Made by a program: the position numbers and the translations under genes. Below, in pieces: positions 1 through 6,318 of a stretch of 25,110 nt of DNA. The first letter of the stretch is position 1, and each line of letters opens with the position of its first letter. The DNA lies in IMG/VR virus record IMGVR_UViG_3300032243_001428, positions 1-25,110 of that record. One strand, 5' to 3'. Below the pieces are notes generated by a model. That model was given only the letters and a program-made list of their open reading frames with translations. It did no database searches and was not told the origin of the DNA. Source of the stretch: a virus (taxonomy: Duplodnaviria > Caudoviricetes).

Positions 1-687
1 AAAACACCCGATGCTCTAATGAACGGGCAGGGCATGGTTGAAGTTATACGTAGCTGTTGTCCCAATATCAAAAATGCCTGGGCCATGCCGGCTGTGGATG
101 TAGATGCTATTTTTATTGCCATTAGATTGGCCAGCTACGGCAGTGACATGGATATCGTTACAAACTGCGCCGACTGCGGGGAGAAGAACGAGCATACTAT
201 CAGTTTAAATCATTTGTTGGATAGTTTTAAAATTGCAGAATACAGTAAACCTGCATTTTTTGATGAATTGAAATTCAAGTTTAAACCACAGACTTATAAA
301 AACATCAGTGACATGGGCATAATCACCTATGAAGAACAGCGTTTGGTTGACAGTATCATTCGTAACGAATCACTCAGTGATGAAGAAAAGGCCGCACGGT
401 TTGCAGAAAGTTTCAGCAAACTCAAACAGCTAAACATAGATTCCATTGCTGTTTGTATTGAAAGCATTACCCCGGAAGGTCAGGAACCGGTCACCGACAA
501 GAAGTTCATTGCTGAATATTTGGAAAATTGCAGTAGAGAATCATATCAAGCCATCAAAGACAAGATTGATGAAATCATAAAAGAAAACAAACTAAAACCC
601 ATGACCCTGACCTGTGCAGAATGTCAAAAGGAATATGAATCAAGTCTGGAGTTTAATCAATCAAATTTTTTCGCCAGCGGCTTTTGA
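1..687 (+). CDS. gp26: T4 gp26-like baseplate hub/tail assembly protein, 5'-truncated by the window
   Basis: Frame is open from base 1 (KTPDALMNGQG...). It has the family-like AIRLASYG segment and two CxxC pairs (CADC, CAEC), and ends in ...NFFASGF*. It is followed by a small gp51-like ORF, as in T4-like cyanophages. Confidence 0.7.
   Translation, partial: KTPDALMNGQGMVEVIRSCCPNIKNAWAMPAVDVDAIFIAIRLASYGSDMDIVTNCADCGEKNEHTISLNHLLDSFKIAEYSKPAFFDELKFKFKPQTYKNISDMGIITYEEQRLVDSIIRNESLSDEEKAARFAESFSKLKQLNIDSIAVCIESITPEGQEPVTDKKFIAEYLENCSRESYQAIKDKIDEIIKENKLKPMTLTCAECQKEYESSLEFNQSNFFASGF
663..672 (+). other. Candidate -1 programmed ribosomal frameshift site
   Basis: A_AAT_TTT_TTC contains two in-register X_XXY_YYZ heptamers (663-669 and 666-672) in the gp26-like frame. 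The -1 frame reads FFRQRLLTLDNEQ... into the next ORF. Confidence 0.65.
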
Positions 688-902
688 CCCTGGACAATGA
701 GCAAGTCATTGCCTGGCTAGACAGCCTGGAAAAAGAGTCAAAAGCCTTAAAACGAGAAATCATGCAGTTGTGTTGGTACATGAGAGGCAGTATCTCATAC
801 ACCGAAGCCATGGAACTTGCGCCATCAGAGCGAGAAATCATAGTCAAGTTAATCAAAGAGAACTTAGAAACTGCTAAGAAATCAGGAATGCCATTCTTTT
901 AA
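684..902 (+). CDS. Small gp51-like tail/baseplate assembly chaperone; probably the -1 frameshift extension of the upstream gene
   Basis: 72-aa ORF with LCWYMRGSISYTEAMELAPSEREII, resembling the short helical second-chaperone ORFs of contractile tails. It has only a TTG start with no obvious SD, and the frame is open back to 657. Confidence 0.6.
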   Translation: MTLDNEQVIAWLDSLEKESKALKREIMQLCWYMRGSISYTEAMELAPSEREIIVKLIKENLETAKKSGMPFF

Positions 903-927
903 GATCTCTAACGAGATCTGTTGTTTC
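902..927 (+). terminator. Possible intrinsic terminator of the + strand genes, or the 3' hairpin of the - strand RNA
   Basis: Perfect 7-bp stem AGATCTC-TAAC-GAGATCT at the gp51-like stop, followed by only a weak T-rich tail (GTTGTTT). Confidence 0.3.
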
Positions 928-1326
928 GCTTGCCAGCTCACAACTGTATTTCTTCTAAGAGCGAAGCGATTATAGTTTCATCCAGATTGTTTGGTCACAC
1001 TTTGCCCACACAGGGCAAAGATAGCTTCATCCGAGTCGACTCAGTCACTTAGCGTTACAACAATTACAGAGGCGGTTGTCCGATACCTCGAGTTGCGTCT
1101 TTTACAACGGCGGTCAAATACACATACGCTAACACACATATTTGACGTGCTCAATCACTTGAGCGTCTTTTTAGCCTTAAATTCCTATTCAAACAATCAA
1201 ACTGCGGCAATTAGCAGTCTACATCCTTCTCGGGTAGTGATTGAGTACTCTTAACGGCGAGAGATTTACGTCCCTGTGACCCGAGGTCCAGTTTTCGTGT
1301 ACACAAGATATTGGCCTGTGTGAGCC
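902..1326 (-). ncRNA. Putative large structured non-coding RNA of unknown family
   Basis: This is the only long intergenic region in the window. Inverted repeats lie at 902-919, 1000-1020, 1069-1089, 1113-1146, 1149-1164, 1201-1218, 1219-1237, 1248-1263 and ~1274-1291. On the - strand the 1113-1146 stem extends through G-U pairs and 1149-1164 closes a GUGA (GNRA) tetraloop. Long-range complements are 1049-1055/1126-1132 and 985-993/1190-1198. The ends are approximate. Confidence 0.7.
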
Positions 1327-1758
1327 TTAACCGTTTAATTTTTTTATGTGGGAGCCATGGACACGGACACTGATTTGTCCGTTGTAGTAATCTTGGGATT
1401 CTAGCACTTTGTGTGTAAATTGTTCTCTTGCTTCGATATAACTACATTCGGCTTTAGAGCGACAGTAATACATGATTTCTCTTGTAAACTGATCTGCGCC
1501 TAATGCCGCAACATCTTTATTCAATTCTTCGTTTGAGCCATAATATGTTTGCCAGTCAGAATCAATTTTACTTCTGATCTTTTTCTTTTTCTTTGTGCCG
1601 TTTTTGAGTTTTACTACTCGATATGTTGTCTTAGAGAATTTTGCTAGTTTTTTACCTATGTATTTGCGCCCTGATACTTTATTCGTGATGACATAGACGA
1701 AGCCTACACAGTCTTCGGGAAGTTCTAAAACCGGGGAGTCTTGATAAGTCCATGTCAT
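1327..1758 (-). CDS. Stand-alone GIY-YIG family (Seg-like) endonuclease
   Basis: Motifs GFVYVITN...KYIGKK, SDWQTYYGS, a catalytic-type Glu (YIEAREQ) and Asn (YYNG). It carries a Lys-rich insertion and is 143 aa with no C-terminal DNA-binding domains. Confidence 0.85.
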   Translation of the reverse strand: MTWTYQDSPVLELPEDCVGFVYVITNKVSGRKYIGKKLAKFSKTTYRVVKLKNGTKKKKKIRSKIDSDWQTYYGSNEELNKDVAALGADQFTREIMYYCRSKAECSYIEAREQFTHKVLESQDYYNGQISVRVHGSHIKKLNG

Positions 1759-1777: not shown

Positions 1778-2782
1778 TTACCATGAAGTTGAATATTCTT
1801 GATTTACTATGTTTTTGTTACATTTTTGTTGGCATTCTTGCCATTTGAAAGCCTTAAGGTCAGTTTCCCAAAATGGGTCTGCGACTGCATCTGTTAAGGT
1901 CCTGTGATGCAGATTGAATTGGTCGGCTAGAGTCTGCCATTCGGTGTTGTGTGTGTAGCGATTTGCCACCCAACAACAAGGAAACAGCCTGCCCCTGGCG
2001 TCTATATAAATGCCTTTGTTACCAATCTCACACAAGGGCTTGACGTTGTTTTGTACTGTGACATCTCTATATAATTGTAGGTTAGTTTGTGATATTTTAC
2101 TGGTTCTATTGGTAAAGTCGGTAACGTCCCGTTCAAATCTATGACTTGTGCTGACAAATCGAACGCTGGGTTGTAATGGATCGTTGTCGCCATAGCTGGG
2201 GTACACGCTACCAAACTTGGTACTGCGAGTCAGTTGGAATCGATCAACACCCAAGGACTTTGCTATTGTTTTCATACGATCTAAATGATCTTCATTAAAC
2301 TTAAATGCAATAGCGACCCACACAATGGTACATGAGCTTGCGACTCTTAATGTCCGTAAACCTGCGACGATACTGTCGTGATCACTGTTTACACGGTACA
2401 AGTTGTTGCTAGGGTTGTCGTAACCGTCAATGCTGAAATGCACACTATCATTGTAGTCTAATAGTTTACCCAACTGTTGCCACCACGATGTCTTTTTATG
2501 ACTACCATTTGTGATGATCACAATCTCAACGGCCTTGATGCTTTTGATATACGCAACAACATCTATTAGATCATGTGCATATATAGGATCGCCATCGTCA
2601 CCGCAGAATGTAATTTTCTCCACACGAGATCTGATGAACTCGGGTGTAAAGTTACGTTTGAAAAATTCCAAATCCAACTCAGTGTTGACCAGACCATCGG
2701 GAACTTCTTGACGGGCACAGCGAGGACAGCGCAAGGTACACTTGCTACTGATTTCTATGTGAAAGTGCCAGGTTGCTAACAT
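1778..2782 (-). CDS. Radical SAM protein with C-terminal SPASM/Twitch-like Fe-S domain
   Basis: CTLRCPRC (CxxxCxxC), FCGDDGDP, ITNGS, FSIDG, and C-terminal C...GRLFPCCW...CQQKC. The start is moved to the ATG at 2782 (MLATWHF), which overlaps the upstream stop; the ORF track start is 2803. Confidence 0.88.
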   Translation of the reverse strand: MLATWHFHIEISSKCTLRCPRCARQEVPDGLVNTELDLEFFKRNFTPEFIRSRVEKITFCGDDGDPIYAHDLIDVVAYIKSIKAVEIVIITNGSHKKTSWWQQLGKLLDYNDSVHFSIDGYDNPSNNLYRVNSDHDSIVAGLRTLRVASSCTIVWVAIAFKFNEDHLDRMKTIAKSLGVDRFQLTRSTKFGSVYPSYGDNDPLQPSVRFVSTSHRFERDVTDFTNRTSKISQTNLQLYRDVTVQNNVKPLCEIGNKGIYIDARGRLFPCCWVANRYTHNTEWQTLADQFNLHHRTLTDAVADPFWETDLKAFKWQECQQKCNKNIVNQEYSTSW

Positions 2783-3651
2783 AGTGGTAGGTCTCGTTGC
2801 CATTGTCCTGTATAGTTAGACATGTTATTGACTGTGCTACAGGTTTCTCGACAGGTGGGATTACAGGAGTCTGTGTTCCAAGTTGCTGTTATAGCATCAA
2901 AGTCATTGATGGTATTTTCGCCATAGCCCAACCAACAACAGGGATGGTACACACCCTTTGCACTGAGATATATGCTTTGATCCCGATTTCTAAAGCAATC
3001 AATGGGACCTTGTTCTACAACAGGTCGAGTCCAACCTCGGGGCGGTTGGAGCCAGTCAACGGTGGATTCGCGCTTGCTGACCTTGGCACGAAACCAACCA
3101 AAGCCCATGTCTCGGGCCAGTTGTTCACATGCTTCAACTTGATGTTCGTTGTGTTCATACACTAACATGTCCCATTGTGCATTGCCTCCAGCACGAATAA
3201 ATGTTTCTGCATTACGCATCACCCTGTCCCAACTAACGTTTCGGCGATACATGTGATTGGTATCTTCCAAGCCGTCAATGCTGAATACCACATAGTCAGT
3301 GGGCCGGTGCAGTACATTGGCTAAATCAGTCCACCAGAGGGAATTTTGTAGTCCACCGTTGGTGTTCATGCCCAATACAATGCTACTGTTAACTGATCTA
3401 AAATAAGAAAAGATATCAAGTGATTCACTGTTGGCAGCCGGATCTCCGTAGTTACCGCACATGAACATTTTATCTAGTCTGTAGATAATTCGTTCGGGTA
3501 ACAGACGCTTGATATCGGCCACAGTCAAACGATGTTGTATATCTTGATTGAAAGAGGAATCTGTTTCGCGGGCACAGCTAGGACAGGCCGCTTGACATAC
3601 ATCAGTGGGCTCTATGTGCAGTACTCTAACTGTTTCAAATAATTTCGACAT
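2776..3651 (-). CDS. Radical SAM protein with C-terminal SPASM/Twitch-like Fe-S domain
   Basis: CQAACPSC, MCGNYGDP, NTNGG, FSIDG, and C-terminal C...GVYHPCCW...CRETC. The start overlaps the end of gp46 by 17 nt. Confidence 0.88.
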   Translation of the reverse strand: MSKLFETVRVLHIEPTDVCQAACPSCARETDSSFNQDIQHRLTVADIKRLLPERIIYRLDKMFMCGNYGDPAANSESLDIFSYFRSVNSSIVLGMNTNGGLQNSLWWTDLANVLHRPTDYVVFSIDGLEDTNHMYRRNVSWDRVMRNAETFIRAGGNAQWDMLVYEHNEHQVEACEQLARDMGFGWFRAKVSKRESTVDWLQPPRGWTRPVVEQGPIDCFRNRDQSIYLSAKGVYHPCCWLGYGENTINDFDAITATWNTDSCNPTCRETCSTVNNMSNYTGQWQRDLPLC

Positions 3652-5442: not shown

Positions 5443-6318
5443 TTATGCGGGACTTCCGCAATAGTTCATGCAGAATAAATGCACCGAATCAGGATTATCA
5501 AGTTGGGACGATATATCCATCAGTTGGCTTGGATCATTGTTTGCGTGACGATGATTAAAGAAACAGCACATGCTCACAGTACCATTGGCATTTACATACA
5601 AGCTGGGCAACTCCAAATGAATACAATCTTTTTTATCAACTCGATTTTTTACAAATGTCAACGGATTGTACTCGGTATTCCGACTCCACGGCTGTATATC
5701 AACTGGTGCGCCTGTTCTATAGTCCCGAGCACTAAAGTTTGTACGCACACGCCGATACAATTCAAACTTTTTAAATCCCATTTTTTGACTAAGACGTAAA
5801 CAGTCTTTGATCTGATGTTCGTTGTGTGCAAACGGTATAAACTGCCAAGTGGCATGTCCGCCTGCTTCGATAAATGCTGTTGCATTGCGAATGATCTTTT
5901 GCCAATCTGTGCCTTGTCTGTAGGTATGATGTGTATCTTCCAGGCCGTCCAGGCAGAACCAAACATTATGCTGGTGACCTGCCAACAGCTTGGCATAGTC
6001 TTGCCACCATTCTTCATTGCGCAGGCTACCGTTGGTTTTTACTATCACAGTTGGTATGCGTTGTTTAGCAATCTCAGTTAGTTCTACGATGTTTGCGGCA
6101 GCAATGGCATCACCAAACGTGCCACAAAACTCAACAGTTTCGACATTAGGTACCGATTTTAGAATTTCTACTAGCCTCTCAGTTTTCAAGTCTTCAACAA
6201 CTAATCCATCTGCCAGCCCGTATCCGTTGTTGTTTCTTGGACAACCGGGACACCAGGCATTGCACTTGCTAGAGGCTTCGATTTGTAGCCATTTAACTGT
6301 TGATAAGTCTATCATCAA
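5443..6318 (-). CDS. Radical SAM protein with C-terminal SPASM/Twitch-like Fe-S domain
   Basis: CNAWCPGC, FCGTFGDA, KTNGS, FCLDG, and C-terminal C...GTVSMCCF...CMNYC. The start overlaps the gp47 stop (ATGA). Confidence 0.88.
   Translation of the reverse strand: MMIDLSTVKWLQIEASSKCNAWCPGCPRNNNGYGLADGLVVEDLKTERLVEILKSVPNVETVEFCGTFGDAIAAANIVELTEIAKQRIPTVIVKTNGSLRNEEWWQDYAKLLAGHQHNVWFCLDGLEDTHHTYRQGTDWQKIIRNATAFIEAGGHATWQFIPFAHNEHQIKDCLRLSQKMGFKKFELYRRVRTNFSARDYRTGAPVDIQPWSRNTEYNPLTFVKNRVDKKDCIHLELPSLYVNANGTVSMCCFFNHRHANNDPSQLMDISSQLDNPDSVHLFCMNYCGSPA

Follow-up and report, generated by a model that had tools for sequence, protein, structure and literature searches.

In ColE1, an rG stretch of RNA II pairs with a dC stretch of the template strand, and the sections of the literature drawn on here describe this contact as essential for a persistent RNA–DNA hybrid (PMC4412123, PMC5043065). 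The resulting R-loop is followed by single-stranded-DNA signals (PMC4412123, PMC5043065, PMC5935869, as far as the excerpts used go). The origins of phage T4 are described in the same excerpts as a promoter combined with an unwinding element that forms an R-loop (PMC4412123, PMC5043065). GNA mini-hairpins, which are stable as DNA, are reported in the consulted part of a further source at the priming sites of phage G4 and ssiA and in N4 promoters (PMC13037366). The last system to be considered is an orphan RNA, Polynucleobacter-1 (RF01718). The alignment published by Weinberg et al. in 2010 is about 280 nt long, runs through a pseudoknot (pseudoknot 1 below) and stops at the first bases of what is called module 1 below. 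In the supplementary material consulted, pseudoknot 1 is drawn and a second one (pseudoknot 2 below) is absent from the structure lines (PMC2864571). No function has been assigned to this RNA since 2010 in the literature searched.

The DNA analysed here, referred to as the window, comprises positions 1–25,110 of the virus record IMGVR_UViG_3300032243_001428 (Caudoviricetes), 25,110 nt in all. It is part of a T4-like phage in which + strand baseplate genes converge on a − strand operon of late sigma factor (gp55), gp47-like, gp46-like, radical SAM and GIY-YIG genes. We assign the names gp46 and gp47 from the look of the translations. Radical SAM genes are interleaved with the gp46/gp47-like genes at 1778–3651 and 5443–6318; two of them are confirmed by PHROGs and a third is similar by eye. 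The RNA element that follows the operon is a member of Polynucleobacter-1. Conservation extends from the stop codon of the GIY-YIG gene to just past a second module, about 355 nt, of which the Rfam model covers the first 136 nt only. The features of the locus are collected in the table.

Table. Features of the RNA locus and its neighbours in the window
Feature	Position	Strand	Details
Convergent baseplate-hub gene and 72-aa gene bounding the RNA element	1..902	+	phrog_150, PF12322, ORF list
A-rich stretch with small hairpins downstream of module 2	902..971	.	Composition, terminator scan
Module 2: GTGAC, variable core, ATCT, repeat GGATGAA (983–977), A	972..998	-	Sequence, identity covariation
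Spacer hairpin, conserved 8 bp	1000..1020	-	399/431 cells paired
Module 1: GTGAC, variable core, ACTC, repeat GGATGAA (1032–1026), G; proposed RNA anchor	1021..1048	-	
Middle domain	1049..1190	-	Hairpins 1165–1148 and 1146–1113; helices 1096–1093:1057–1060 and 1089–1069; two pseudoknots
5' domain (RF01718), holding both segments earlier named as partners of the module cores	1191..1326	-	105.3 bits over the full model length (gathering threshold 37 bits)
SegE-like GIY-YIG gene, 143 aa, last gene of the operon	1327..1758	-	PF19835, E 7e-34; phrog_447

Homologous loci were gathered by protein scans (at least 80 viral and at least 80 metagenomic) and by six DNA-pattern scans of viral contigs, and all locus counts given here are among the matches listed. 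The fold was analysed by mutual information and pair counts in 54 non-redundant type-A sequences, which recover a set of nested helices and two pseudoknots. Helices 1321–1317:1301–1305, 1243–1238:1194–1199 and 1218–1214:1201–1205 are paired in 99–100% of cells with compensatory changes. In the notation of the 2010 alignment, this level of pairing applies to P1, P4 and P6 and to its pseudoknot. Pseudoknot 1 (1131–1126:1050–1055) is paired in 311 of 312 cells with 48 both-side changes and ends two bases before module 1, while pseudoknot 2 (1108–1104:1075–1079) is paired in 267 of 270 cells with 18 both-side changes. Positions 1234, 1223 and 1202 show a three-way covariation (C/U/A versus U/C/G), which suggests a base triple in the 5' domain.

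Among the subfamilies the 5' domains differ or diverge more and the twin-module end is the same; Rfam gives no match for eight loci with other 5' domains (L004, L014, L161, L425, L524, L582, L719 and L774). One locus (L336) has lost the second half of the middle domain together with module 1, so that the pseudoknot loop region is joined directly to module 2. Contigs of relatives in RNA libraries span both the ORF–RNA boundary and the module region; these are assembled contigs and are uninformative on transcription, strand or ends.

A first-pass annotation of the window had described the two modules and the 8-bp hairpin between them, and had noted that the middle of module 2 (985–993) is a perfect complement of 1190–1198 and that the core of module 1 can pair with 1250–1242 around a 2-nt bulge. 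All of these sequences lie where they were placed, and the modules are the only two sites of the form GTGAC-N-GGATGAA-N-CTAT in the 25-kb window. The twin architecture is conserved as well, being found in 169 of the 210 GIY-YIG loci listed (L176 among these is a false match), with 17 loci too short and 24 showing none within 800 nt. The locus is a structured non-coding element with two related modules, and the relationship between these modules is under strong selection.

The two helices that had been drawn from this complementarity are a different matter. In the 54 type-A homologs the pairing of the module-2 core with 1190–1198 is kept in 344 of 486 cells (71%) with 6 both-side changes, and that of the module-1 core with 1242–1250 in 284 of 454 cells (63%) with 9. 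The competing helix 1243–1238:1194–1199 is paired in 322 of 324 cells with 75 both-side changes, and 1248–1249, inside the other supposed partner segment, pairs with 1262–1263. The partner segments occur in 11 and 17 variants and the cores in 33 and 30, all nine pairs being kept in only 6 of 74 distinct partner/core combinations. Folding of the window gives a pairing probability of 0.0 for the module-2 helix and about 0.3 for the module-1 helix. The cores therefore do not covary with their internal partners in the homolog alignment, the outcome that the annotation had itself named as speaking against it, and the conformational switch it had proposed finds no support, since it rests on these helices.

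The signal that covaries between the modules is identity. The 7-mer that follows each core is equal in 170 of 171 distinct module pairs, representing at least 276 loci, with each module recognised by a permissive pattern; chance alone would give a match in 52–55% at the two purine positions that vary. In a scan blind to the 7-mer, a shared word of at least 7 nt occurs in 97 of 100 pairs versus 655 of 3000 cross-pairings (22%). Positions 1032/983, 1028/979 and 1026/977 carry the same base in 54/54, 54/54 and 53/54 type-A homologs, and the two repeats lie 47–66 nt apart. The sequence itself is free: at least 34 distinct matched 7-mers occur over four subfamilies, about three of them shifted frames of another, and a one-base insertion is shared by both copies (GGTCAAGT versus GTGTCAAGT). 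Subfamily D is looser, with 20 of 43 pairs fully identical and 14 differing by one base.

Trees built from the protein and from the RNA 5' part give 24–26 concerted changes at one position and no discordant tip. This figure overcounts because both modules appear to move as one recombining block, and given block exchange among close relatives the roughly 30 distinct repeats are the safer measure. Near-identical RNAs switch to a different sequence at or just after the modules. In one pair of loci, 98% identical over 597 bp, the same G-to-A change is present in both repeats. A repeat that is free in sequence yet matched between modules suggests that the RNA pairs with the DNA of its own locus. 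Pairing alone does not account for the invariant GTGAC or for the spacing. Candidate CsrA sites and K-turns were dropped, as GGA and GA are not kept.

A fold of the RNA by itself, in which each module finds its partner in an upstream segment or, through like-with-like pairs, in the other module, would draw on the complementarity present in the window and, in its second form, would also yield identity. Such a fold is extremely improbable: the upstream helices fail covariation, antiparallel module–module duplexes gain nothing over permuted pairs (−8.5 versus −8.4 kcal/mol), and like-with-like pairing would require seven consecutive homo-pairs of any base.

What enforces the match can be narrowed by genomes that carry several copies. 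One (G012) has two copies, with the repeats ACGAAAT/ACGAAAT and GACAGGA/GACAAGT. Another (G011), the 318-kb phage record behind L582, has four, at 120469 (+), 251982 (+), 315110 (−) and 12340 (−); three of these carry CGGAAAT, AGGTAAT and ACGGAAAT, and the fourth is degenerate. Both are metagenomic contigs that could be chimeric. Two of the G011 copies share a nearly identical AT-rich downstream region, which suggests a recent duplication. Since the copies within one genome carry different, locally matched repeats, a single trans-acting reader of the repeat is unlikely.

Nor is there another copy in sight that could hold the two modules together. A recurring third copy or complement of the repeat is absent from the RNA, from 200 nt upstream of the ORF and from 300 nt downstream in 136 loci. 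When two complete genomes (G001 and G002) are aligned over 151 kb, only the two modules change together among nine GGATAAT sites, and a third genome (G003), aligned over only about 30 kb, shows no third covarying copy there.

These observations bear on the proposal, already made in the first-pass annotation, that the modules are two sites for a protein dimer. In its broader form this would have the modules bound by a dimer or by two protein copies, or acting as iteron-like DNA sites, and co-evolving with the protein. The fixed parts of the modules fit such a design, GTGAC being invariant, ACTC and ATCT fixed and the spacing narrow, and the GIY-YIG protein has a lysine-rich segment that could serve it. 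By eye this segment presumably sits at the position of the catalytic arginine helix of I-TevI; no solved structure of a relative was found, and a single-sequence structure model (pLDDT 47) is too poor for use. The earlier description of fixed flanks around variable cores holds for GTGAC and fails for GGATGAA, which varies, jointly in both modules. This variation is what weakens the proposal. There are at least 34 different repeats, including one with an indel, the repeats differ among copies of one genome, and mismatch types are biased. The best GIY-YIG column explains only 22–40% of the entropy of any variable position; because no residue tracks the repeat, the GIY-YIG protein does not enforce the match. 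Binding sites of this kind are therefore an unlikely account of the modules.

The annotation had also likened the modules to box C/D, TIGR and bridge RNAs. Taken further, the variable cores would be guides that send the GIY-YIG protein to other targets. The number of core variants (30–33 among 54 homologs) and the usual place of the RNA behind a nuclease-fold gene are what such guides would show, and the other observations make the idea very unlikely. No module match beyond chance length is found in three own genomes, each locus has one unit and no array, the two cores are partly identical to each other, and some loci have the nuclease gene displaced or lack it. Protein-domain searches of five related genomes, three of them at least 90% complete, find no Tas-type Nop protein (PF01798, a model that may miss divergent Tas proteins) and no IS110 DEDD recombinase (PF01548).

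With these candidates set aside, the remaining simple partner is likely the complement of one module, present as the template strand. On the pattern of sequence variation, the partner of the repeat is probably the template DNA strand of its own locus. The mismatches suggest which module would supply the RNA. Among discordant core cells, 17 have G in module 1 against A in module 2 and 3 have the reverse, a count among relatives that are not independent and from which four misregistered rows (L412, L476, L572 and L621) were left out. This bias is expected if module-1 RNA pairs with the template of module 2, because G:T wobbles and the reverse is an A–C mismatch. Twelve further discordant core cells are transversions and count against the rule. 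At position +2, C/T is seen 7 times versus 25 expected. With RNA–RNA energies as a proxy, the duplex of module 1 with the complement of module 2 is stabler than the reverse in 157 of 171 pairs, and in the window the values are −28.0 versus −17.8 kcal/mol.

Other features of the modules fit this direction less well or are neutral to it. The three bases before the repeat are C/T, T/C and C/T in 171 of 171 pairs; two of them fit the reverse direction, and the proposed one needs a bulge there. The G/A at +1 in 132 of 171 pairs is a fixed asymmetry equal to the column-frequency prediction, with no covariation. Furthermore, the module 2 of the transcript itself would pair with the template far better than module 1 (−47 versus −23 kcal/mol), so timing or folding must favour module 1.

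An alternative is DNA-to-DNA pairing or copying, by a slipped strand or by primer or strand transfer between the repeats, in which the RNA has a role only upstream. It would leave the same identity and G/A bias. The 98%-identical pair of loci with its paired G-to-A change agrees with this, as does a spacer hairpin that can form in either DNA strand, and whole-block recombination can explain that pair. Fixed differences on either side of the repeat (171 of 171 pairs on the 5' side, 139 of 171 at +1) make plain homogenisation unlikely, since simple homogenisation would erase them. In addition, pseudoknot 1 ends right before module 1, and no RVT_1 reverse transcriptase (PF00078, the retron/DRT-type domain; divergent enzymes could be missed) is found in the five genomes. 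This DNA-only alternative is quite unlikely.

The preferred reading, to which a probability of roughly one half is given, is that the element is a ColE1-like self-anchoring primer RNA and origin. In this model a pseudoknotted RNA gene of about 355 nt, found in T4-like jumbo phages, carries matching 7-nt repeats in its two 3' modules. Module 1 of the transcript would pair, some 50 nt downstream in its own locus, with module 2 on the template DNA strand, and this pairing would seed a persistent RNA–DNA hybrid. The hybrid would then prime phage DNA replication as RNA II does in ColE1, with 3'-end processing and replisome loading as candidate later steps. By analogy, the combination of a folded RNA, a self-anchor, AT-rich DNA and single-strand signals is the anatomy of ColE1-type and T4 R-loop origins.

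The DNA downstream of module 2 supplies the last two of these parts. In the window, positions 902–971 contain GCGAAGC (+ strand, 961–967), a GAGC-N-AGCGAA stem near 924–939 and a hairpin at 902–919 that a terminator scan also scores as terminator-like for the + strand. Hairpins with a c(GNA)g triloop, on either strand, occur no more than 130 nt from module 2 in 104 of 133 homologs versus 0.3–2% of random windows, which were taken from the genomes and not matched to intergenic DNA. Genome-wide, GNA hairpins with stems of at least 6 bp are rare. One contig of 335 loci (L442) folds back at a terminal GNA-type hairpin some 90 nt past module 2; this is probably an artefact of assembly or amplification.

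How the RNA would be made differs among the loci. All four G011 copies have, as read from the sequence, a sigma-70-like promoter site (TTGAC-17-TA..T) just upstream. In the main clade no conserved sigma-70 promoter precedes the RNA (10 scattered matches over 169 loci), and transcription would reach it as the final stretch of the operon upstream. A motif (G/C)(A/C)TAA(C/T/A)T(A/T) is found no more than 30 nt from the start of the GIY-YIG gene in 64 of 123 homologs (1759–1777, − strand, in the window); it is no general promoter motif in four genomes, where ATAAATA is enriched upstream of genes. In subfamily D, TTGNNA occurs at module 2 in 30 of 71 loci, 19 of them with a −10-like hexamer, a count made with no control for AT content. 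In L526, L556, L557, L562 and other loci of this subfamily module 2 overlaps TTGACA or a close variant, and the −10-like hexamer often follows 16–18 nt past it. Module 2 may thus double as a promoter in subfamily D; as a general sigma-70 −35 element it was rejected, the main clade having no such rule.

Signals of replication were sought in related genomes. A T4-type 5'–3' exonuclease (PF02739) is present in five of five. The RNase HI domain (PF00075) is absent from the same five, and a host enzyme or another one would therefore be needed. In three near-complete genomes the curve of cumulative GC skew does not bend at the element. In six genomes, skew measured at four-fold sites reflects gene direction alone, with no replication signal; one-directional replication on the RNA strand, which had appeared after a crude codon correction, was rejected once its signal was gone at these sites.

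The neighbourhood of the RNA raises another alternative, in which the same self-pairing serves another purpose: a stop for RNA polymerase at the convergent junction, a recombination hot spot, or a nicking or packaging mark for a nearby nuclease. All of the identity evidence fits this alternative, and the element sits where two operons converge. The switch of sequence at or just after the modules in near-identical RNAs fits it too. In most loci the syntenic copy comes after a gene for a nuclease, either a GIY-YIG protein or a RusA-like resolvase. The GIY-YIG gene is upstream of the RNA in 50 of 52 loci listed, the other two being too short, and in 113 of 120 loci listed in a second set, with one at 916 nt and six too short. 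In G011, which is 85% complete and lacks this GIY-YIG gene, the RusA-like resolvase stands in its place. Against such a purpose, the space between the nuclease gene and the RNA freely accepts other genes, and the extra copies in G011 and G012 have no evident adjacent nuclease gene and are not all at convergent junctions. The alternative is thus rather unlikely, and the GIY-YIG gene is a usual, not an obligatory, upstream neighbour of the RNA, to which it is only loosely tied.

Between the GIY-YIG gene and the RNA lies a hot spot of insertion, with extra genes of 60–310 aa in several loci (L401, L441, L460, L333, L425, L053 and L087) and the element staying at the operon junction; one inserted gene resembles a second GIY-YIG homing endonuclease. 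The protein itself has 499 matches among cultured phages. Its family, phrog_447, is labelled 'NAD synthetase' in many T4-like phages in culture, yet it matches the GIY-YIG domain. In the three cultured phages inspected (Melnitz, S-SRM01 and phiN3) only about 30–150 nt separate the homolog from the next gene, and the RNA element has no DNA match among 50,697 phage records. One scan of bacterial genomes returned a phage-like contig (L133) and a chance match (L134).

If the identity rule holds, the ColE1 principle of an RNA that anchors to its own template would extend to a structurally unrelated phage RNA, whose anchor nature has rewritten about thirty times. If the primer reading is true, the element would mark origins by sequence in hundreds of phage contigs. 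Standard screens for base-pair covariation do not see identity covariation, and other orphan RNAs may hide the same signal. A more tentative extension, doubtful at present, is that replication in a widespread jumbo-phage family starts through a self-addressed, reprogrammable RNA strand invader, for which any 7–9-nt anchor matching the downstream copy would work. Each locus would then serve as an origin orthogonal to the others, and the RNA scaffold could be redirected to open DNA elsewhere.

A comparison with the described systems shows what is shared and what is particular to this element. Within Polynucleobacter-1, the part of the published description consulted (PMC2864571) does not contain the twin modules and their identity covariation, pseudoknot 2, the downstream DNA hairpins or the subfamilies with other 5' domains; a description of the twin modules was likewise not found in the literature searched, which takes in few subscription journals. 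Like TIGR-Tas, IS110 bridge and box C/D RNAs, the element has conserved motifs framing two short variable segments, with a hairpin in between. TIGR arrays consist of repeated dual-spacer units, most often 5–15 according to the text consulted (PMC12045711), compared with one twin unit per locus here. Their proposed avoidance of their own DNA, as stated in that text, is a further difference, since the partner here appears to be the element's own DNA (PMC12045711). Box C/D RNAs are set apart by the GGATGA 'box', which homologs replace with GGTCAAG, TGCCAAG, GACATGT, CGGAAAT and others. By the features tested, the element is no TIGR, bridge, box C/D or retron-type RNA.

The R-loop origins are closer. 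With T4 oriF and oriG the element shares a T4-like phage, transcription from a promoter or operon into an AT-rich region, and several copies in some genomes; it differs in its large pseudoknotted RNA and twin repeats, which the excerpts of their description used here do not mention. It resembles ColE1 RNA II in being a long folded RNA, of which one segment is proposed here to pair with the template strand of its locus. The rG stretch of ColE1 lies far upstream of the dC stretch. In this element, the anchor is instead a freely varying mixed 7–9-mer in a twin-module frame about 50 nt apart, and the element belongs to a phage that has replication genes of its own. Searches for RNA II or RNA I homology give no Rfam match up to E 10 and no match in 72,556 plasmids. 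The element most likely works like ColE1 RNA II, by analogy of its parts, without being homologous to it.
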